Below, piece after piece: positions 793 to 55,772 of a DNA stretch of 64,000 nucleotides. Each line of letters starts with the position of its first letter. Positions within the stretch are counted from its first letter, which is position 1. The translations under genes were made by a program, and so were the position numbers. The notes beneath the pieces are model-generated. The model searched no databases, was not told where the DNA came from, and saw only the letters and a program-made list of their open reading frames with translations. This stretch comes from Candidatus Latescibacterota bacterium (GTDB taxonomy: Bacteria > Latescibacterota > UBA2968 > GCA-2709665), in assembly GCA_965248435.1 (NCBI GenBank), contig OZ252100.1:5184001-5248000 (forward strand), read 5' to 3'.

Positions 793-1812
793 GTGGCATC
801 CGACATTACGACCACCGTCATCGGCAGCCTGCCCAGGCCCAAATGGCTGGTCCAGGACGACAACATCCGGCTCTGGCGGCTCAGCGGCGAGGCCCTGCAG
901 GAGGGGAAGGACGACGCGGCCCGATTGGCCATCCGCGATCAGGAAGACGCGGGCATCGACGTGATCACCGACGGTGAACAGCGCCGCATGCACTACATCA
1001 GCCGCTTCATTTCCTCGCTGTCGGGGATAGACGCCCAGCAATCGAACTACGCCGACGTGGAGGAGGGGACCGTGAACAGGGCGGCTCCCGTCGTCATCGG
1101 CGAGGTAAAACGCGAGCACGCTTACGCGATCGAAGATCTGCGCTTTTTGAAAGCACACACCGATCGGCGAATAAAGATGACCATGCCCGGCCCGATGACC
1201 GCGATGTACTGGCTCGAAAACGAGCACTACGACAACGAGGCCGACCTGGGCATGGCGTTGGCTGCGGCGCTGAACGAGGAGATGCGGGACCTTCAGGCGG
1301 GAGGATGCGACGTCATCCAGCTGGATGAACCGCAGGCTATCGGGCGTCCTGACGCCTTTCGGGAGTGGGGACGCGCGGCGCTCGACCTCGCCTTCGAGGG
1401 GATCGAGACGACGACCTGCGTTCACTTCTGTTTCGGCTTTCGGGTTGAAGTCAGCGAAACCCCGGTAATACGGGAACCGGAGCGGATCGAAACCCTGGCC
1501 AGTCTGCTTCCCGATATCGGTTCGTGTCGGTCCCGACAGTTCGCCTTCGAATGCGCGTGCAGCCGCATCGAGCCGGAGTTCTTTTTGGGACTCCCGGATG
1601 AAAAACAGGTCCTCTTCGGTCTCCTCGACATCGGGTGCACCGTTGTCGAAGAAGCCGAGCGTATCGCAGAAAAGATCAGACACGCAGCCAATGTCCTGGG
1701 TCGGGACAGGGTGTGGGCGGCGCCCGACTGTGGACTCGTCTGGCTGTCAATGCAGACGGCCAGAGCAAAGCTCCGCGCCCTGGTGGAGGGCGCCAGGATG
1801 GCATCTCGATGA
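793..1812 (+). CDS. Cobalamin-independent methionine synthase II family protein (single-barrel, half-MetE)
   Basis: Motifs TTVIGSLPRP, QEDAGIDVITDGEQRR, PGPMT, IQLDEP; Zn ligands in HFC and PDCG. GGAGG RBS before GTG at 793. Confidence 0.85.
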   Translation: MASDITTTVIGSLPRPKWLVQDDNIRLWRLSGEALQEGKDDAARLAIRDQEDAGIDVITDGEQRRMHYISRFISSLSGIDAQQSNYADVEEGTVNRAAPVVIGEVKREHAYAIEDLRFLKAHTDRRIKMTMPGPMTAMYWLENEHYDNEADLGMALAAALNEEMRDLQAGGCDVIQLDEPQAIGRPDAFREWGRAALDLAFEGIETTTCVHFCFGFRVEVSETPVIREPERIETLASLLPDIGSCRSRQFAFECACSRIEPEFFLGLPDEKQVLFGLLDIGCTVVEEAERIAEKIRHAANVLGRDRVWAAPDCGLVWLSMQTARAKLRALVEGARMASR

Positions 1813-25935: not shown

Positions 25936-26030
25936 GGCAGTTGCACGAGTGAGGGTTGAATCCGAGCTCGTGATCTTGCAGCGTAACTATTTTACAGGGG
26001 ATTAAAACTCATCCCGCCAGTCCACAATCA

Positions 26031-26064
26031 AAGGAGGCCGCACCTGAAAAGGTGCGGCCTCCTT
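26031..26064. terminator. Bidirectional terminator hairpin between convergent genes
   Basis: Perfect 15-bp stem AAGGAGGCCGCACCT-GAAA-AGGTGCGGCCTCCTT. Confidence 0.8.
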
Positions 26065-26090
26065 ATTGGATGGTGACCCGAATCGGAATG

Positions 26091-26453
26091 TTAGTTTTCG
26101 AACACCTTATGGATGTGCTCCCGAAGCGTCGACAGGTCGAACGGTTTCTTGAGGACCGCGACCGGATTCAGTTTCTCCAACCCCGCCTGGAACTCTTTCG
26201 AGTGCAGGTAGCCGGATATGATGATGACCGGGATCTCTCTGGGGAGGTCTTTGATCATCTCCAGTCCGTCGCTTATCGGCATGTTCAGGTCGGTGATGAT
26301 CAGATCGACGTGCTGATCACTCAGCATCACCTCCAACACTCCGTCGAGACCATCGGCCCCTTCCAGGATGTTGTAGTCCTCAGACAGGGTGTCCTTCAGC
26401 ACCCCCCGCAACTCTTCCTCGTCATCTACGATCAGAATCACGTTTTTCATCAT
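26091..26453 (-). CDS. Single-domain response regulator (CheY-like)
   Basis: ILIVDDE, IITDLNMP..DG, IISG, KKPF. Confidence 0.9.
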   Translation of the reverse strand: MMKNVILIVDDEEELRGVLKDTLSEDYNILEGADGLDGVLEVMLSDQHVDLIITDLNMPISDGLEMIKDLPREIPVIIISGYLHSKEFQAGLEKLNPVAVLKKPFDLSTLREHIHKVFEN

Positions 26454-26494
26454 TCCGCCTATCTGTTAAATCGGATTACAGGAGAGGACCATCA

Positions 26495-28129
26495 TTAGAA
26501 TTTGGAAATGGCAACTTCCTTCGAGGTGATGAACTCCAGAAGGGCCGGTGTACCCCCTTCTGTCTTTTGGATGCCGCGTTTGATCGCCGGGACGATCTCG
26601 CCGGGGGATTCCACTCGCTCGCCATAGCCCCCGAACGCCTTCGCCATGTCGGCGTAGTTCCCGGATATGTCCGTGCTCCGGTATTTTTCCGTGGAGACGG
26701 GCATCACGCCCAACTCGATCGCCATGGAAAAGTTATTCAAGAGGATCGAAAGGATGGGGATGCGTTCTCGAACCGCCGTTTCGAAGTCCATGCCGGTAAA
26801 TCCGATGGCCGCGTCTCCCCAGATGTTGACGCAGAGCTTTTCCGGTCTGGCGAGCTTCGCCCCCATGGCCAGGCCGAGCCCGTACCCGAGCTGCGTGCTC
26901 TTGCCCCACCCGATGTAGGAAAGCGGCGTCGTCGATTCCCAAAACGGCGACGTCTGGTCCCGAGGACTTCCGGCATCGTGCGTGACGATCGAGTTCTCAA
27001 CATCCACGGTATGCATCAGGTCCCAGATCACACGATAGGGCGTGAGAGGCGTTTCCTGAGACGTGAGCTTCGGCATCCACTGGGCCTGCCATGCTTGCTT
27101 GATTGTTCTAATCTCCTTCGCAACCTTGTCCGCTCTACCCCGAGGCCTGCCGCCGAGTCGTTCAGAGATTTCAGCGTTGAGCGCCTCCAGCGTCAATCCT
27201 GCGTCTCCGACGAGTGCCTGGTCGACGACGGCGTTCCTGTTGATGTCGGCCGGATCGAGGGTCGAGTGGATGATCGTCTTCCCCTCAGGGATCTGGATGC
27301 CGAAATGGGTCTCCGCAAAGCTGCAGCCGATTCCGAAAATGACGTCGGCGTTCTGGACGAACTCATGAACGGTCCCGGGAATCGCCGCCCCGGCGGAGCC
27401 GAGTGCCAGGGGATGGGTTTCAGGGAAGGCGCTCTTGCCGTTCAGCGTGGTGACAACAGGCGCCTCCAGAGTCTCAGCCAGTGTTCTGAGGCTGTCCCAG
27501 GCCTCGGCGTAGTGGACGCCCTGGCCGGCGTGGATCACCGGTCGCTCCGCTTCAAGCAAGGTTTCGGCCGCTTTTTGCACATCGCCCGGATCCGGCGCAG
27601 ACCGATAGACGGCAACGGGACGGTAATTCAGGTCGTCGGGGATGTCGGCATCCATCACATCTGTTGGAATCTCAACGAGCGTCGGTCCGGGTCGTCCATT
27701 CCTGGCTAGGCTGAACGCCCGTCGCAAGGCGTCGGACGTCGCACTCGGGTCCGTGAGCAGCTCGCAGGATTTCGTGATGTTCCGGAAATTCAACGAAGAG
27801 GTGAAATGGGGTGGGACGCTGGTAAGCGCGCGCGGTTGGCCCATGGGCAAGACGACAACGGGCACGGAATCGGCAAAGGCCTGGGCGACCCCTCCAAACA
27901 CGTTTTCCGAGCCGGGGCCGTGCTGCATACAGAAGACACCAATCTTCTTGCCTGAGTTCAACCTGCTCAGGGCGTCGGCCATGTGCATACCGATGCGTTC
28001 CTGGCGCACGATGATCGGTCGGATGTCTACTTTGGCTGCTGCCTCGATCAGGTGATTAACGGGATATGCGAAGAGGTACTCTACGCCCTCGGCTTTCAGG
28101 ATGTGAGCGACGGCATCGGCGACCTTCAA
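26495..28129 (-). CDS. Thiamine pyrophosphate-dependent enzyme (acetolactate synthase-like)
   Basis: RQE, GPG, GRPGP, GDAA...NN TPP motif; AGGAGG RBS before TTG. Confidence 0.9.
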   Translation of the reverse strand: MKVADAVAHILKAEGVEYLFAYPVNHLIEAAAKVDIRPIIVRQERIGMHMADALSRLNSGKKIGVFCMQHGPGSENVFGGVAQAFADSVPVVVLPMGQPRALTSVPPHFTSSLNFRNITKSCELLTDPSATSDALRRAFSLARNGRPGPTLVEIPTDVMDADIPDDLNYRPVAVYRSAPDPGDVQKAAETLLEAERPVIHAGQGVHYAEAWDSLRTLAETLEAPVVTTLNGKSAFPETHPLALGSAGAAIPGTVHEFVQNADVIFGIGCSFAETHFGIQIPEGKTIIHSTLDPADINRNAVVDQALVGDAGLTLEALNAEISERLGGRPRGRADKVAKEIRTIKQAWQAQWMPKLTSQETPLTPYRVIWDLMHTVDVENSIVTHDAGSPRDQTSPFWESTTPLSYIGWGKSTQLGYGLGLAMGAKLARPEKLCVNIWGDAAIGFTGMDFETAVRERIPILSILLNNFSMAIELGVMPVSTEKYRSTDISGNYADMAKAFGGYGERVESPGEIVPAIKRGIQKTEGGTPALLEFITSKEVAISKF

Positions 28130-28233
28130 AGAACCTCCTGCAAGTGTGGGTAGAATGTTTCGTTAATTCGGGGATCATTTCTTTACAGCTGACCCGACCC
28201 CGACGCGCTTTCAGTCGGTGTGGGCTATAGAAC

Positions 28234-28246
28234 TATCAGTATGTTA
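28234..28246 (+). promoter_or_regulatory. IHF-binding site candidate
   Basis: TATCAG-TATG-TTA matches WATCAR-N4-TTR, about 40 bp upstream of a sigma54 motif. Confidence 0.5.
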
Positions 28247-28285
28247 TTTCAGTACATATGTACGATTTTACATTTGGGGCAATTC

Positions 28286-28301
28286 TGGCATATCGATTGC
28301 A
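28286..28301 (+). promoter_or_regulatory. Sigma54 (-24/-12) promoter
   Basis: TGGCAT-ATCGA-TTGCA with exact GG-N10-GC spacing. Confidence 0.75.
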
Positions 28302-28311
28302 TTCAAAGAAT

Positions 28312-28400
28312 CATCAGCGGGGCGCAGGCCGGTCCAGCGACCCGCAACTTGCCCGGTGTGACGTTTGTTGTAGTCGGGGGGCGTCATATCGGGCTTTTCT
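28312..28400 (+). ncRNA. Putative sigma54-dependent small RNA (~90 nt)
   Basis: Follows the sigma54 motif. Hairpin 1 at 28317-28345, hairpin 2 at 28351-28394 with G-U pairs, then TTTTCT. Both flanking genes are on the minus strand. Confidence 0.6.
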
Positions 28401-28481
28401 ATGCCCAGGACAAAAGGGACACCGGCTTGGGATGAATGAAACTACACAAAACCTGTCAAGTCAAGCTTGAACCGAATCCGT

Positions 28482-28862
28482 TCAGATCGCGGCCGTGGCC
28501 TCGATCTCCACGTGCGCACCCGCAGGCAGGGCGGAAACCTGGACACACGAGCGCCCTGGAGGATCTTCGGTAAAGTAGCCGGCGTAGACCGCGTTCATCT
28601 CGGCGAAGTCGGCGATATCCGTAAGGTATACGACGGTACGGACCACGTTTCCCATGCCCGCCCCAGCGGCCTCGAGGATGGCGTGGATGTTTTCCAGTGT
28701 CTGACGGGTCTCCGCCGCGATGCCGCCGTCCACGATTTTTCCCGTTTGGGGATCGATGCCCTTCTCCCCCGCAACGAAGATGAAGTTGCCCACCTTGATG
28801 CCCTGTGAATAAGGACCTACCGGCAGGGCGGCCTTTTCGCTGGTGATGACTTCCTTTTTCAC
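28482..28862 (-). CDS. ridA: RidA family reactive intermediate/imine deaminase
   Basis: GPYSQG, DFAEMNAVYA.YF, PGRSCV, LP.GA.VEIE. Confidence 0.85.
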   Translation of the reverse strand: MKKEVITSEKAALPVGPYSQGIKVGNFIFVAGEKGIDPQTGKIVDGGIAAETRQTLENIHAILEAAGAGMGNVVRTVVYLTDIADFAEMNAVYAGYFTEDPPGRSCVQVSALPAGAHVEIEATAAI

Positions 28863-28932
28863 TTAGCTTTCTCCTCCTCAACACATTTTTGGACGATTCG
28901 AAACCTTGTTTGACTCTACCCAGGAGCCCGCC

Positions 28933-29328
28933 GTGGCTGTGGCCAAGCATCTCGCGTTTCTCGATCAGGGTGCGGAAGCCTGGAACCGATGGCGGGAGGA
29001 GTTTCCGAAACTGAGGCCAGGCCTTACCGGGGCCAAGCTGGCGGGTCGAGAATTCGGAAAAATGGATCTCAAGAAGGTGAACCTGAGCGGTGCCGACCTG
29101 AGTGGCAGCGACTTCACCGGATCCGATCTGGGTTGGGCCGACTTGAGCGGTGCCGATTTGAGGCGGGCAGATTTGAGTGGAGCCCGGCTTATCTTCGCCG
29201 ACCTCACCGGCGCCGATCTAAGGGAGGCTAGAGGATTGAACCGGATGCAGGTGGGAGAAGCGATTACGGACAAAGCAACCCGCCTTCCGGGTGATCTTGA
29301 CCGACCGGCTGAAGCGCAGCGATCATGA
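28933..29328 (+). CDS. Pentapeptide repeat protein
   Basis: WNRWR N-terminus; tandem A(D/N)LxG repeats. Confidence 0.85.
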   Translation: MAVAKHLAFLDQGAEAWNRWREEFPKLRPGLTGAKLAGREFGKMDLKKVNLSGADLSGSDFTGSDLGWADLSGADLRRADLSGARLIFADLTGADLREARGLNRMQVGEAITDKATRLPGDLDRPAEAQRS

Positions 29329-30480
29329 TCGACTGATGTCAAGGACCCTGCTTCCGCCTGCCCCCTTTTCGAATGTAGAATTGTCGATCTTTTCCTTCAG
29401 CTTCTCCAAATAAAGGTCCTCATCCACGGGGATCTCTACCCAGCCGTCGGTCCACGCGGAGAGGAGCATGGCATTCGATAGCTCGAGGCTGTGGATGCCC
29501 TCTTCGCCTGGAGCGATCAGCGGCGTTCCTTCCAAGATCGACTCCACCCAGTTTTTCGTGAGAACGTGGTGTCCCTCTTCGACATCCGGGATCGGGATAT
29601 CGCATTCCCAGGTTTCAGGCATCCCGAACCCGCCCGTGTGTTCACGTGTAAACTGGCGGACCGGCACTCGCGTTCGCCAGAAGGTGATCCGCCCGTTCTC
29701 CGCCACGACCTTTCCCCGGTCCGCCGCGATCTCGAACCGGTCCGTGCCGGGGGCCTCGCCCGTCGTTGCCACGAACAGGCCGGTGGCGCCGTTTTCGTAC
29801 TCGACAAAGGCGGTCACGTCGTCCTCCACCTCGATGTCGTGGTACTTCCCGAACTGGCAGAAGGCTCGAACCCGTTTCGGCATTCCACATATCCACTGCA
29901 ATAGATCCAGGTTGTGGGGACACTGATTCATCAGGACCCCTCCGCCTTCACCTGACCACGTTGCCCGCCAGCCCCCGGAATCATAGTAGCTTTGCGCCCG
30001 GAACCAATGCGTGACGACATAGTTGATTCGGAGGATTTCTCCCAGTTCCCCCGAGGAGACAATCTCTTTCAGTTTTCGACTCTGAGAAACGGCCCGCCTC
30101 TGGAACATGATACTGAAGACGCGGTCGCTCTTTGCCGCCGCTTCGTTCATTTTTCGAACCTGCTTCGTATAGACACCCGCGGGCTTTTCTACCATCACGT
30201 GGAGGCCGTTCCCGAAAGCTTCGATCGCCAGCGAAGAATGGTCGTAGTGGGGCGTGCAAATGATGACGCCGTCCGTCGTGCCCGAGGAGAGGAGCGCCGC
30301 GGCGTCGCTGAACGTGTGGATTCCCTCCCCGAACCTCTCGCTCGCACCTTCGGTTCGTCGCGGGTCGCTGTCGCAGATCGCCGTCAATTCTGCGTGAGGC
30401 ACCCTGCCGGCGGAGATGTGGGCAGCGTGTCCGCTTCCCATGTTCCCTGCACCGATGATGCCGATTCGAACCTTGCCCAT
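29323..30480 (-). CDS. Gfo/Idh/MocA family oxidoreductase
   Basis: GIIGAGNMG, CTPHYDH, VEKP, GGGVLMNQCPHNLD. Confidence 0.9.
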   Translation of the reverse strand: MGKVRIGIIGAGNMGSGHAAHISAGRVPHAELTAICDSDPRRTEGASERFGEGIHTFSDAAALLSSGTTDGVIICTPHYDHSSLAIEAFGNGLHVMVEKPAGVYTKQVRKMNEAAAKSDRVFSIMFQRRAVSQSRKLKEIVSSGELGEILRINYVVTHWFRAQSYYDSGGWRATWSGEGGGVLMNQCPHNLDLLQWICGMPKRVRAFCQFGKYHDIEVEDDVTAFVEYENGATGLFVATTGEAPGTDRFEIAADRGKVVAENGRITFWRTRVPVRQFTREHTGGFGMPETWECDIPIPDVEEGHHVLTKNWVESILEGTPLIAPGEEGIHSLELSNAMLLSAWTDGWVEIPVDEDLYLEKLKEKIDNSTFEKGAGGSRVLDISRS

Positions 30481-30696
30481 CCCTTTTCCCTGATTTCGAA
30501 GATGAAAGAAATTGTTTGCAGAAGATACAAACGCCCCGTTGCTTCGACAACAAAAACAGGAAGTGTGGAGGCAGGGTGAGACGCGATGGGGTCCCTGACC
30601 CTTGACGTCCTCTCCCACAGGAATATATTCTCGAGGTTTCGCATACTCCAGATCGAGATTTCACATCCGACGGCATAAGCCGGGAGGGTTTCCCTA

Positions 30697-32517
30697 TTGG
30701 ATTCGAACTGGTTTGAGATCAAACTGCCGCGCAACCTGGACCGATTGACGGACCCGGATCGCGATTTGGTGCGTGATGAGCAGATGGTCTCGATAGGCGG
30801 CGGCGTATGGCTTCTCCTTCTTCGAGGCTCGGAGAAGGGGCCGCTCTGGATTCTGAAACCGAGGTGGAAGCGGCCCAGGCCGATCGGAAATTTTGAAACC
30901 GTCCAGGCCATTGCCCCTGCGGGTGGGGAGGCGGCCCTCGTGCAGTCCGACGACGCCCTCTGGAAGATCAAGGAAAGCGGGAGAAGGAGGAAGCTGATCG
31001 ACCTGCCGAAAGGGTTGACCTCGGTCGACTTCCAATGGCAGGGCGGACGTGTGATTGTGGCCGGGTTCGTGGACCGAGCACAGGCCCCTGACGCTTCAGC
31101 GCCGAAATTCCAACCTGCTCCCAGGGGAGAGATCACGCTTTGCCGCTATGCAAAGAAGGGCGGGTGGGCCGATTTGGCGGAGGTAGCAGCGGGATGCGGC
31201 GGGCTCAGTCTTTCCGGCGACGGAAGCAGGATGGTCTGGAGAGAGCCGGTGAACACGGTGCCGGAGGAGGCGCAGAGGGCGGAGTTCAGGGGATTCGATC
31301 TGACCGATAAAGGGACTCGGTCGCTCACCGAAGGGGCGGGCAGGGCCGGAAAAGCGCTGATGGCTCCCGATGGTTCTGGCTTGATCTACGAGGCCAATCA
31401 CCAAACGAGCCTCCCGATCACGACCCATACAGACGTATGGTGGATGTCGTGGGACGGAGACAAGAGGCGGAGACTGACAAGAGGTGAGCGGCAAATCGAG
31501 GACTTCGGATGGGGTCCTGGCGGGAACTCTGTGTGGGTTTCGAATACCGATGGCGTGAATCGGTCGACAGAAGTCTTGTGTATGGATGGTTCGGTCGGCG
31601 AGGTTCTTGAGCCGGCCGCCACATCCCCCGTCGTTTGGTCGGATGAGGGGAAGCCGGCATACGAGACTGAGGATCGGGCAGAGCTCCCGAAGATCCGAAT
31701 CGACGGCCGAACTGTGGAGATCCCTCAGATCGAAGCCTTCGAGGACCTGCATGTTATGCCCGTCCGATGGTCTGCGCCGGATGGTCTGGATCTGCACGGT
31801 GTCGTATACGAGGCCGCAGAGACGCCTGGGGATGCGCCGCTCCTCGTCAAGGCCCACGGGGGTCCGGCCGGTACGGTGGAGGCGCTGAAAAGCGAGGCCG
31901 TGCGCTACCAGTATCTTCTACGGGCCGGGTATCGCGTGTTCAACCCGGCCTTTCGAGGATCTCTCGGATTTGGAGACGCCTTTTTGCGGGGAAATATCGG
32001 CTGCCAGGGAGAGGCAGACCTGGATGACATCCTGTCGGGGGTCGATCATCTGGCTTCGTCGGGCAAGGCCTCGCCCGATCGTGTGGGGATCTTCGGGGGG
32101 TCCTACGGGGGCTACATGACACTGCGGGCCCTGGCCGTGACGGATCGATTTCGGGCAGGGGTTGCGCTCTACGGTTTCGTTTTAAATCGATGGATGACTC
32201 TGGAGACAGGGGACTTTACGTATGAACGCGAATATGTTGCCCCGCTCTCGTGGCCTCCGTCCGAAGCTGCGGTCAGGAGCGATGTCTTCAGTCACCTGGG
32301 TTCGATCGACGCTCCGCTGCTTCTGCTTCACGGCGACCGCGATCCGATCTGCTCACTCTCACAATCGGTTGTCACGTGTCGAGCGCTGGAAGCGAGAGGC
32401 GTCCGGGTCGGTCTTGTGATCTATCCGGGAGAGGGGCACGGATTTCGGAAGAAGATGAACGTGAGGGATTGTGCGCGTCGAACGCTCGCCTGGTTTTTGG
32501 AGCATCTGCCACCCTAG
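30697..32517 (+). CDS. S9 (prolyl oligopeptidase) family peptidase
   Basis: HGGP, RGSLGFG, GGSYGG nucleophile, HGDRD, YPGEGHGF. Confidence 0.85.
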   Translation: MDSNWFEIKLPRNLDRLTDPDRDLVRDEQMVSIGGGVWLLLLRGSEKGPLWILKPRWKRPRPIGNFETVQAIAPAGGEAALVQSDDALWKIKESGRRRKLIDLPKGLTSVDFQWQGGRVIVAGFVDRAQAPDASAPKFQPAPRGEITLCRYAKKGGWADLAEVAAGCGGLSLSGDGSRMVWREPVNTVPEEAQRAEFRGFDLTDKGTRSLTEGAGRAGKALMAPDGSGLIYEANHQTSLPITTHTDVWWMSWDGDKRRRLTRGERQIEDFGWGPGGNSVWVSNTDGVNRSTEVLCMDGSVGEVLEPAATSPVVWSDEGKPAYETEDRAELPKIRIDGRTVEIPQIEAFEDLHVMPVRWSAPDGLDLHGVVYEAAETPGDAPLLVKAHGGPAGTVEALKSEAVRYQYLLRAGYRVFNPAFRGSLGFGDAFLRGNIGCQGEADLDDILSGVDHLASSGKASPDRVGIFGGSYGGYMTLRALAVTDRFRAGVALYGFVLNRWMTLETGDFTYEREYVAPLSWPPSEAAVRSDVFSHLGSIDAPLLLLHGDRDPICSLSQSVVTCRALEARGVRVGLVIYPGEGHGFRKKMNVRDCARRTLAWFLEHLPP

Positions 32518-53369: not shown

Positions 53370-54674
53370 TCAGAGTTCGTAACGTCTGATCTTTTCGTAG
53401 AGTGTGCGCCGATTGATCTGCAGGATCCTGGCAGCTCTGCCACGATGTCCGGCGGTGTTTTCGAGGGTTTGCCTGATATGATCTCGCTCCACCTCTCTGA
53501 GACTCCGGGGCCCGTCGGGTGTCGAGGACACCATCTCATCCGGCAAGCGAATCTCCTCGGGTAGCTCGTTCAAGGAGACCGAGGGTCTTTCCGCCAGCAC
53601 AACACACCGCTCGACGATGTTTTTTAGTTCCCTGACGTTGCCCGGATAGTCATACAGAAGCAGGCATTCGAGCGCTTCTTCCGAAAACCGCACAGGGAAA
53701 CTCCCGTTTTGCCGGCTGTAGTGGAAAAGGTAGTAGTCGAGCAGAAGTGCGATATCCTGCCTACGGGTGCGAAGTGGAGCGACGTTGATCGTCAACACGT
53801 TGAGCCGATAGTAGAGGTCCTCTCGGAAGTCGCCTGACTTGACGGCTTCGCGCAGATTGCGGTTTGTGGCCGCGATGAATCGGACGTCGGCGCAGGCTGG
53901 GACGGTCGCGCCGACCCGGAAAAACTGTGAATCTTCCAGGATTCTGAGGAGTTTTACCTGGATGGCCGGGCTGACATCTCCGATCTCGTCCAGGAATATC
54001 GTCCCGCCCCGCGCGACTTCGACAAGGCCGGCCTTGGATTTGTAGGCTCCGGTAAAGGCCCCCTTGGCGTGGCCGAACAGCTCGCTTTCGAGCAGAGGCT
54101 CTGGAAGGCCGCCGCAGTTGATCGGAATGAAAAGTCTTTCTGCCCTGAGACTCTGTTTATGCAGGGACTGCGCCACCAGTTCTTTACCCGTGCCGCTTTC
54201 TCCCTGTATGAGTACGGTGCTGTGGGAGGGCGCGATCTTGCCGATCATCCTCCTCAGGCGGCCCATTTCAGGGCTTTTTCCGACAAAAGGGTCTTGACTG
54301 GAGCCAAGGGCCGTCTTTAGAGAGTGGTTCTCTTCCTTGACTCTCCGGTCCCCAAGGGTGCGCTTGACGATAAGCAGAAGCTCATCGGGCGTTATCGGGC
54401 TCAGAATATACCCCTGAGCCCCCTTTTCCATCACGTGAACAGCCTCAGCAACCCTTTGAGGCTTCGAGATCAGGAGCAAGTTCTCGGCGGGGAAGTCATC
54501 CAGGGCTGCACTCGGACAGGGCTTCTCGAGGTCGTAGAGGACGAGGTCGGCCGAAGCATAACGCCCTGGTGCAGATTCAACCGTAGAGACGGCGTAGCCG
54601 CCGCGCTTCAGAACCTGAAGGCAGCTTTGCCGGATCTGTGGATCGGATGTAGATACAAGGATACAAGCAGCCAC
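53370..54674 (-). CDS. Sigma54-dependent transcriptional activator (bEBP) with degenerate receiver domain
   Basis: GESGTGKE, GAFTGA, FLDEIG, AATN, FREDLYYRL, PGNVREL; C-terminal Fis-type HTH. Confidence 0.92.
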   Translation of the reverse strand: MAACILVSTSDPQIRQSCLQVLKRGGYAVSTVESAPGRYASADLVLYDLEKPCPSAALDDFPAENLLLISKPQRVAEAVHVMEKGAQGYILSPITPDELLLIVKRTLGDRRVKEENHSLKTALGSSQDPFVGKSPEMGRLRRMIGKIAPSHSTVLIQGESGTGKELVAQSLHKQSLRAERLFIPINCGGLPEPLLESELFGHAKGAFTGAYKSKAGLVEVARGGTIFLDEIGDVSPAIQVKLLRILEDSQFFRVGATVPACADVRFIAATNRNLREAVKSGDFREDLYYRLNVLTINVAPLRTRRQDIALLLDYYLFHYSRQNGSFPVRFSEEALECLLLYDYPGNVRELKNIVERCVVLAERPSVSLNELPEEIRLPDEMVSSTPDGPRSLREVERDHIRQTLENTAGHRGRAARILQINRRTLYEKIRRYEL

Positions 54675-55407: not shown

Positions 55408-55423
55408 TGGCACACCTTTTGCT
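55408..55423 (+). promoter_or_regulatory. Sigma54 (-24/-12) promoter of the XRE-prkA-yeaH-spoVR operon
   Basis: TGGCAC-ACCTT-TTGCT, a consensus match. Confidence 0.8.
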
Positions 55424-55553
55424 ATGAAACTTGGTAGATGAAATATCAGGTTTCCGATATATTTTAATAAGGTGTTAAAAAGGCGAAGGTAAGCCCACTT
55501 TGCCGCGCTGGCGCCACAGACATGAGGAACTTTGGGAGCTGGAGGTTGTTCAA

Positions 55554-55772
55554 ATGATTAGAACGCGGTTGCACGAACTCTTAGGTGAGCGGCGGATGAA
55601 GGTTGCAGGCTTGGCCCAGATTTCAGGCGTTTCCTATCCACAACTGCACCGTCTCTACCACGGTCAAACAAAGAGGATCGATTTGAATACCTTGAACTCG
55701 CTCTGCAATGCCCTTCGCATCACCCCAAACGATCTTTTAGACTTCAGTCCCGACAAAAAGGATGAGTTCTAA
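55554..55772 (+). CDS. XRE/Cro-C1 family HTH transcriptional regulator
   Basis: LAQISGVSY..L..LY.G....I.L.TL..LC.AL...P.DLL; GGAGG RBS. Confidence 0.9.
   Translation: MIRTRLHELLGERRMKVAGLAQISGVSYPQLHRLYHGQTKRIDLNTLNSLCNALRITPNDLLDFSPDKKDEF

Follow-up and report, generated by a model that had tools for sequence, protein, structure and literature searches.

The 352-nucleotide (nt) spacer between ridA and a gene for a thiamine pyrophosphate (TPP)-requiring enzyme in the genome of a marine Candidatus Latescibacterota bacterium (assembly GCA_965248435.1; G000 in the genome-wide coordinates below) contains a sigma-54 type -24/-12 promoter that is followed, on the same strand, by two hairpins and a short U-tract. 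On balance, and with somewhat better than even probability, this arrangement points to a discrete, noncoding, lineage-specific plus-strand RNA of about 85 to 90 nt whose synthesis would depend on sigma-54. The element was analyzed within a stretch of 64,000 nt of contig OZ252100.1 (positions 5,184,001 to 5,248,000; hereafter the window), to which coordinates without a contig prefix refer; the spacer spans 28130-28481, and both of its neighbors are encoded on the minus strand. A first-pass annotation made from the letters of the window had listed the promoter, the hairpins, and the motifs upstream of them, and direct reading of the sequence finds every one of these where it had been placed; promoter and terminator together make up a coherent plus-strand unit that holds no coding gene and matches no Rfam family.

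The promoter, TGGCATATCGATTGCA (TGGCAT-ATCGA-TTGCA), follows the TGGCAC-N5-TTGCW pattern, with its GG and GC dinucleotides 10 nt apart. Matches to TGGCAY-N5-TTGCW number 2 in the window versus 0.14 expected, a count reached by 0 of 100 shuffles, and the genome encodes the corresponding machinery in the form of one rpoN gene (PF04552, 199.5 bits) and 24 matches to PF00158, some 21 of which are strong and mark enhancer-binding-protein genes. Genome-wide, the strict motif occurs 34 times. Intergenic DNA, as defined by a crude gene caller of our own (4471 genes, 86% coding), makes up 14% of the genome (0.80 Mb), yet it holds 27 to 28 of these matches, with 6 to 7 in the 4.87 Mb of genes; a first-order Markov simulation predicts 1.1 intergenic matches (at most 3 in any of 40 runs), and the excess over chance is therefore about 25-fold. 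A co-directional gene lies ahead of 22 of 27 intergenic matches and is lacking for the other 5, and true orphans, among them TGGCATATCGATTGCA, number three versus about 0.5 by chance (a rough estimate, not a computed value). Because of the intergenic excess, and because only about 0.5 orphans would be expected where there are three, the promoter at 28286-28301 is very probably functional. TGGCATATCGATTGCA is also the only one of the 34 strict matches to have a terminator of the census described below within 300 nt downstream.

Several of the other promoters recovered by this search have features of their own. The seemingly orphan promoters at C1:2390308 and C1:3412745 (G000) are followed by small open reading frames (ORFs) with ribosome-binding sites that our caller had missed, encoding a hydrophobic peptide of about 46 amino acids (aa) and a protein of about 62 aa. 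Another orphan strict promoter, at G000:C1:4494883 on the minus strand, has neither an ORF nor a census terminator within 330 nt, and the next gene beyond it lies on the opposite strand. The promoter pairs G000:C1:2818011/4735209 and 1730575/1738400 have near-identical flanks, indicating paralogous promoter regions, and from promoter 4735209 the next called gene is 1143 nt away.

The spacing between start and box at sigma-54 promoters sets the predicted transcription start (Table 1). At the other end of the unit, about 50 nt downstream of the promoter, hairpin 2 has the makeup of an intrinsic terminator, with a GC-rich stem of 13 to 16 bp (-30.1 kcal/mol) that runs directly into UUUUCU, and from these two ends we infer the RNA length of some 85 to 90 nt. 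A genome-wide census of hairpins with a stem of at least 9 bp and a T-tail found 437 behind co-directional genes (2670 strand sides) versus 100 elsewhere (2816 sides, 815 kb); because the amounts of sequence are similar, this difference indicates that the organism uses terminators of the hairpin-plus-T-tract kind. Within the census, hairpin 2 counts as a 16-bp stem and is among the strongest, and the census counts give a rough estimate of about 1.5% for the chance that any particular position on an orphan side has a terminator no more than about 100 nt away. A stock terminator scanner returned 0 sites on either strand; it seemingly requires an ungapped stem and a loop of 3 to 8 nt.

Folding favors the plus strand for the unit as a whole (-46.5 kcal/mol, z -4.6, for 93 nt, versus -31.7 kcal/mol, z -2.2, on the minus strand) and above all for hairpin 2, whose z of -7.3 compares with -14.3 kcal/mol and z -3.5 on the minus strand. 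Its stem holds G-U pairs at 28356/28389 and 28358/28387, and further G-U pairs extend it in the predicted fold to 16 + 3 bp. The structural signal is confined to the unit, since extension of the folded stretch to 28481 gives a z of only -1.6. The first-pass annotation had said that the G-U pairs and the U-tract work on the plus strand alone; hairpin 2 folds far better there, and hairpin 1 is strand-neutral. A natural variant points the same way as hairpin 2: a contig from a near-identical strain in a seawater metatranscriptome (run X1) has one internal difference, C>T at 28390, by which the plus-strand pair 28355/28390 changes from G-C to G-U, and the minus strand acquires a C-A mismatch. The variant and the two G-U pairs already present lean weakly to the plus strand; under neutrality, all three would favor a strand named in advance about 1 time in 8.

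Other units of this kind are present in the genome. When the promoter motif is relaxed to 10 of 11 positions with GG and GC fixed, it matches 182 times genome-wide (89 intergenic), and six relaxed promoters lie 30 to 150 nt before a census terminator in the right orientation, versus 0 in the reverse orientation over the same windows. Short sigma-54 units thus appear to form a class in this genome, which supports the existence of sigma-54-driven short RNAs but does not prove the one at 28312-28400; Rfam has no match for any sibling unit. The sibling at C1:2309318 is flanked by minus-strand genes, like the candidate at 28286, and the loops of its hairpins are C-rich (CCCGAC and GUCCCCCGACU). Its homolog in another genus (G004:C1:3685167-3688227, about 1405-1610, minus strand) keeps a TGGCAC...TTGAG box, has a duplicated hairpin pair, and carries CCCCGAC in three hairpin loops; judged by eye, the stem differences between the two are wobble or compensatory, and this sibling is a better-conserved small RNA (sRNA) candidate than the RNA at 28312-28400. 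The sibling at C1:2730674 lies 248 nt downstream of a gene for a 461-aa enhancer-binding protein, and a 72-nt stretch of it is 77% identical to G000:C1:2953827-2953900.

Table 1. Features of the candidate RNA locus, its neighbors, and sibling units elsewhere in the genome
Feature	Position	Strand	Remarks
IHF-like motif TATCAGTATGTTA	28234-28246	+	Centered at about -72 from the predicted start
Perfect 12-nt palindrome GTACATATGTAC	28252-28263		Centered at about -55
Sigma-54 type -24/-12 promoter TGGCATATCGATTGCA	28286-28301	+	GG at 28287-28288, GC at 28299-28300
Predicted transcription start	28309-28313	+	Some 12 nt past the C in the GC of the -12 box; inferred
Hairpin 1	28317-28345	+	GC-rich, all Watson-Crick; folds equally on both strands
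Hairpin 2 (terminator stem)	28351-28394 (arms 28351-28363/28382-28394)	+	13 bp, 2 G-U pairs
U-tract TTTTCT, predicted 3' end	28395-28400	+	Direct sequence reading
TPP-requiring enzyme (NF004807/PRK06154 type)	26495-28129	-	TTG start behind AGGAGG; divergent from the candidate RNA
Receiver-only response regulator	26453 to 26091	-	Downstream of the TPP-enzyme gene
ridA (Rid family deaminase)	28482-28862	-	Convergent with the candidate RNA
Pentapeptide-repeat gene	Start 28906/28933, to 29328	+	Beyond ridA
Sibling unit C1:2309318	G000:C1:2309200-2309480		Promoter TGGCATACCATTTGCG, about 85 nt, two hairpins, U6 tail
Sibling unit C1:2730674	G000:C1:2730560-2730900		Promoter TGGCACAAGGCTTGCG, 15-bp terminator, about 137 nt
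Further sibling units	C1:1930777 and C1:2950934		

Several findings weigh against a discrete plus-strand RNA. Hairpin 1 is marginal and not clearly above chance, and it is as stable on one strand as on the other (plus strand, -16.4 kcal/mol, z -1.9, matched by 9 of 200 shuffles; minus strand, -17.4 kcal/mol, z -2.0, matched by 7 of 200). Hairpin 2 beats its own shuffles on the minus strand too, at the z of -3.5 given above, and G/U-rich strands generally fold better than their C/A-rich complements. The predicted RNA is almost fully paired, and so small a single-stranded portion would be unusual in an sRNA that pairs through a seed. The unit has no activator gene next to it, the nearest PF00158 gene lying at 53370-54674, about 25 kb off, and a palindrome and shared-motif search revealed no enhancer motif common to the TGGCATATCGATTGCA promoter and other sigma-54 promoters. 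On the minus strand hairpin 1 is followed by the U-rich stretch UGAUGAUUCUUUG, where the end of a ridA transcript is conceivable, and terminator scans found no minus-strand terminator between the ridA stop codon and the element. These points would suit an alternative that we consider unlikely but take seriously, in which the -24/-12 match is a product of chance and the hairpins act on the minus strand, or at the DNA level, in the ridA/TPP spacer; hairpin 1 with UGAUGAUUCUUUG might, for example, end ridA transcripts, and the imperfect inverted repeat of hairpin 2 might be a protein site or a relic. About one chance match to the motif is indeed expected in intergenic DNA, chance matches would gather among the gene-less ones, and the conservation and expression searches, having yielded no homolog and no supporting reads, did not contradict such an origin. 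The 25-fold excess of intergenic matches and the 1.5% estimate for a terminator so close to an orphan point speak for the plus-strand unit instead, as does the fact that the element is single-copy and not REP-like. On the minus strand, moreover, hairpin 2 would contain two C-A mismatches and an 18-nt loop with no U-tract behind it, and the whole spacer folds there with a z of +0.85.

As for the conservation of promoter and hairpins in related genomes, on which the first-pass annotation had made its proposal depend, BLASTN with the spacer gave 0 matches in 40 relatives, and the sole congener carries a deletion of the locus. A covariance model, built from the single sequence entered twice and thus holding no covariation information, returned from the 40 relatives two chance-level matches (E of 0.06 and 0.8 per genome) with no -24/-12 box. 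The TPP enzyme itself is present in 39 of 41 genomes including G000, its sequence being 87% identical within the genus and about 72% identical within the family; outside the genus, another gene precedes the TPP-enzyme gene and the gene order of the relatives differs. No sigma-54 motif or homolog of the element was found within 1.5 kb upstream of 23 TPP orthologs. Of 80 metagenome TPP loci, 7 were dropped for having less than 200 nt of upstream sequence; the remaining 73 hold no sigma-54 motif in the 1 kb upstream. The best relative among the metagenome loci is 73% identical, and no same-genus contigs were found. The closest relatives of RidA (74 to 80% identity) come from Candidatus Latescibacterota metagenome-assembled genomes (MAGs), three of which are the same-family genomes G020, G013, and G003, and this places the organism in the same phylum; no such element lies beside ridA in 4 related MAGs. 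Covariation support is zero, because no homolog was found in the relatives or the metagenome loci, and the element is known from one species and a near-identical seawater strain only.

In the one congeneric genome, G001, synteny is kept, but the BLAST alignment shows only about 5 nt in place of 28129-28722, with ridA-derived homology reaching back, by eye, to about 28716. Because the deletion removes the locus, absence of the element from G001 is a secondary loss and not evidence against function. In the G001 region compared (C1:3512000-3530000), the spacer is gone together with two-thirds of ridA at its 3' end. What is left of ridA abuts the TPP gene, both facing the same way, and a GGAGGG that derives from ridA serves as the new ribosome-binding site; G001 also lacks the response-regulator gene that follows the TPP gene in the window (26086-26492). 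Two of the sibling candidates give almost nothing by BLASTN in 22 relatives, and the intergenic RNAs of this clade are apparently for the most part beyond the reach of BLAST at the available sampling.

Four public read runs (X1 to X4) were mapped to 26000-31000. Runs X2 to X4, whose kind is unstated, cover the whole 5 kb evenly and were taken as most likely DNA, and the seawater metatranscriptome X1 holds the near-identical strain at low depth. Its 151-nt contig, unstranded and at a depth of 2, covers 28281-28428 and so passes both predicted RNA ends; it cannot stem from the predicted short RNA alone and may represent a read-through transcript or DNA carry-over. That the contig continues beyond the terminator to 28428, and that the U-tract is short at four U, would agree with a real promoter whose terminator is leaky or regulated, the product being a long antisense RNA across ridA or perhaps a leader of the pentapeptide-repeat gene with hairpin 2 as its attenuator. 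The next plus-strand gene begins only about 500 nt beyond the terminator, and the divergent spacer between ridA and the pentapeptide-repeat gene is about 43 to 70 nt. We nevertheless find this version rather improbable, given a 16-bp stem that ranks with the strongest in the census and the lack of any upstream anti-terminator pairing in the sequence; a single competing pairing came up, downstream of the stem. G001 has lost the promoter but retains the pentapeptide-repeat gene, which is 84% identical there and has a ribosome-binding site of its own; because of this retention the gene appears independent of the promoter, and the unit is probably not a leader of 28906/28933-29328. The first-pass annotation had concluded from the minus-strand neighbors that the promoter serves no protein gene; both neighbors are indeed on the minus strand, and a plus-strand gene does begin beyond ridA.

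A functional RNA could also lie on the minus strand, derived from the 3' untranslated region of ridA or from read-through, with a C-rich loop CCCCCCGACU and hairpin 1 as its terminator. Such an RNA would resemble the C-rich-loop hairpins of the C1:2309318 candidate, with whose terminator loop the minus-strand loop has CCCCCGACU in common, and the minus-strand z of hairpin 2 would be accounted for. However, intergenic DNA holds just 3 copies of CCCCCGACT, about the number that a rough 4^9 estimate gives for chance; CCCCGAC is not enriched; and BLAST detects no wider similarity, a search of the genome with C1:2309318 returning that unit alone. The two stem mismatches favor the plus strand, as does the variant at 28390, and the minus-strand U-tract is poor, making a minus-strand origin very unlikely.

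The C-rich loop of the sibling bears on the plus-strand RNA as well. An uninterrupted run of 16 pairs (-34.4 kcal/mol) can form between the G-rich top of hairpin 2, AGUCGGGGGGCGUC, and the loop GCGUCCCCCGACU of C1:2309318, but 186 of 54,456 intergenic 27-nt windows (0.34%) pair as well with that loop, and the comparison was made post hoc. The idea that the candidate and an RNA of the C1:2309318 family titrate each other, which would make it the first Latescibacterota riboregulator, an Hfq-independent and sigma-54-gated anti-sRNA, is a long shot.

At gathering thresholds, Rfam (Qrr, GlmY/Z, CrcZ, and Pxr included) gave 0 matches in the window; the first-pass annotation had not recognized the sequence either. 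The only permissive match was to naRNA4 (RF02564), at 23.9 bits versus a gathering threshold of 59.5 (E 0.034 in 421 nt); a REP/naRNA4-like repeat was rejected, the element being single-copy, the next best genome matches having E >4, and the score lying below threshold.

The unit is probably noncoding. Three plus-strand frames are open, over 71, 70, and 28 codons (28220-28435, 28258-28470, and 28349-28435), and a small protein made from one of them is the remaining alternative. Coding scores of the plus-strand spacer ORFs run from -0.12 to +0.05 per codon, at or below background, versus 0.17 +/- 0.07 for called small genes; the 28-codon ORF is the one exception, at 0.14, but it has no Shine-Dalgarno sequence or other ribosome-binding site before it and spans the terminator. 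Pfam, the only protein search made on these ORFs, has no match in them, the two long ones start upstream of the promoter, and all three cross the terminator hairpin, so that a protein product is hardly credible.

Upstream of the promoter, the first-pass annotation had seen an integration host factor (IHF) site. An IHF-like motif is present, but at chance frequency: WATCARNNNNTTR occurs 2 times in the window versus 1.73 expected, and 51 of 100 shuffles have at least 2. TATCAGTATGTTA probably does no more than belong to an AT-rich tract: A+T makes up 67% of the 60 nt before the promoter, versus a mean of 53% for all 34 strict matches. The genome has nine HU/IHF-family genes. The palindrome GTACATATGTAC has 1 exact copy in the 5.67-Mb genome and 4 copies at no more than 1 mismatch, a uniqueness that alone shows no function, and the sequence upstream of the window's other sigma-54 promoter (55408) lacks it. 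A protein might bind the palindrome, which would then be an activator site or the operator of the divergent TPP-enzyme promoter. The succession of IHF-like motif, palindrome, and promoter, listed in this order by the first-pass annotation, is the reverse of the classical enhancer-IHF-promoter arrangement. The search for GTAC palindromes also brought up an intergenic tandem repeat of the 8-nt unit GTACTCCA, with at least 5 copies, at G000:C1:1143196-1143239.

The first-pass annotation had further put forward the gene at 53370-54674 (minus strand), whose product is an NtrC-type response regulator, as the possible activator. This assignment finds no support, the gene lying 25 kb away and divergently beside another sigma-54 promoter, with no upstream motif in common; the promoters at 28286 and 55408 have three 8-mers in common upstream, which by our estimate is about chance. 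The second promoter, a perfect match (TGGCACACCTTTTGCT, 55408-55423, plus strand), lies 77 nt before ORF 55500-55772 and diverges from the activator gene, from which 826 nt devoid of called genes separate it, and it is more likely than the candidate-RNA promoter to be the target of that activator.

If the plus-strand RNA is made as proposed, an enhancer-binding protein would activate sigma-54 RNA polymerase at 28286-28301, transcription would start near 28312, the RNA would fold into hairpin 1 and then hairpin 2, and hairpin 2 with UUUUCU would act as an intrinsic terminator, releasing the transcript at 28396-28400. Since neither Hfq (no PF17209 match) nor CsrA was found in the genome, estimated to be 97.5% complete, the RNA would have to act without them, and an Hfq-dependent trans-acting sRNA was discarded as a candidate on the PF17209 result. 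We favor a mode in cis, in which the plus-strand RNA, or convergent transcription as such, would hit the 3' region of ridA or a read-through transcript from ridA into the TPP gene; pairing or collision would then uncouple the TPP-enzyme and response-regulator genes from ridA whenever the activator is on. This mode is preferred because no ridA terminator precedes the element, so that minus-strand ridA transcripts should enter or cross it, and because in G001 the deletion has left the TPP gene downstream of the ridA promoter. Alternatively, the RNA might act in trans via the G-rich top of hairpin 2. Target prediction over 4470 start regions (ViennaRNA duplexfold with opening energies) yielded only unrealistically long GC-rich duplexes, which were discarded.

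Both flanking genes match family models: the TPP enzyme scores 884 bits against NF004807 (cutoff 607), and the ridA product matches PF01042 (3.6e-41) and TIGR00004 (154 bits). A 9-nt repeat, TTCAAAGAA, is found at 28125-28133, in the region of the TPP start codon, and again at 28302-28310, between the -12 box and the predicted start; were transcription to begin a few nucleotides before the predicted start, the RNA would have a 5' end complementary to the start of TPP translation. The repeat is probably due to chance, as about 0.3 such repeats per 400 nt are expected by a rough estimate.

Latescibacterota are known almost only from metagenomes, and a full-text literature search found nothing that pairs them with sigma-54. 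If transcribed, the candidate and its four to five sibling units would show enhancer-gated riboregulation without Hfq or CsrA in this phylum, and the promoter-to-terminator pattern would offer a simple handle for such genes in uncultured lineages, with no principle changed. The position between ridA and the TPP-enzyme gene would also, if the proposed mode is true, provide a small test case for control by convergent transcription.

Sigma-54-dependent small RNAs are well documented in Proteobacteria. Qrr of Vibrio, CrcZ and CrcY of Pseudomonas, Pxr of Myxococcus, and an RpoN-dependent sRNA of Campylobacter jejuni are reportedly of this kind. These are riboregulators of about 100 nt or more that are controlled by sigma-54 and an activator and have a terminal hairpin with a U-tail, and in kind the candidate would resemble them. 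They are conserved and have exposed seed or protein-binding motifs, whereas the candidate has no sequence or covariance-model similarity to them, is almost fully paired, and is limited to one species. With the REP-derived hairpin pair naRNA4 (RF02564) it shares two adjacent GC-rich hairpins, but it is single-copy and scores below threshold.

Closer in layout are GlmY and GlmZ of Enterobacteriaceae, which PMC3045617 describes as sRNA genes with a sigma-54 promoter and upstream activator and IHF sites. The candidate, known from its sequence, would likewise be a small RNA gene driven by a sigma-54 promoter and ended by an intrinsic terminator, but it differs from GlmY and GlmZ in lacking an Rfam match, recognizable triple activator sites of the GlrR type, an adjacent activator gene, and an Hfq in the organism, in an IHF-like motif that is at chance level, and in belonging to another phylum. 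The sigma-54 regulome of Desulfovibrio vulgaris Hildenborough (Kazakov et al. 2015, PMC4641369) includes four noncoding RNAs (ncRNAs), such as the "ncRNA downstream of DVU0653," and two of the four are named there as lying downstream of their own activator gene. As with these ncRNAs, the candidate is a predicted promoter-to-terminator unit under putative sigma-54 control in a free-living bacterium with many enhancer-binding proteins; it does not have the activator-adjacent arrangement of those two, its nearest enhancer-binding-protein gene being about 25 kb away, and the sequences are unrelated. By sequence and predicted structure, the candidate would belong to none of the sRNA families compared. 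The kind itself is already known, as the first-pass annotation had said, and the sibling unit at C1:2730674, lying behind an activator gene, matches the Desulfovibrio arrangement (PMC4641369).

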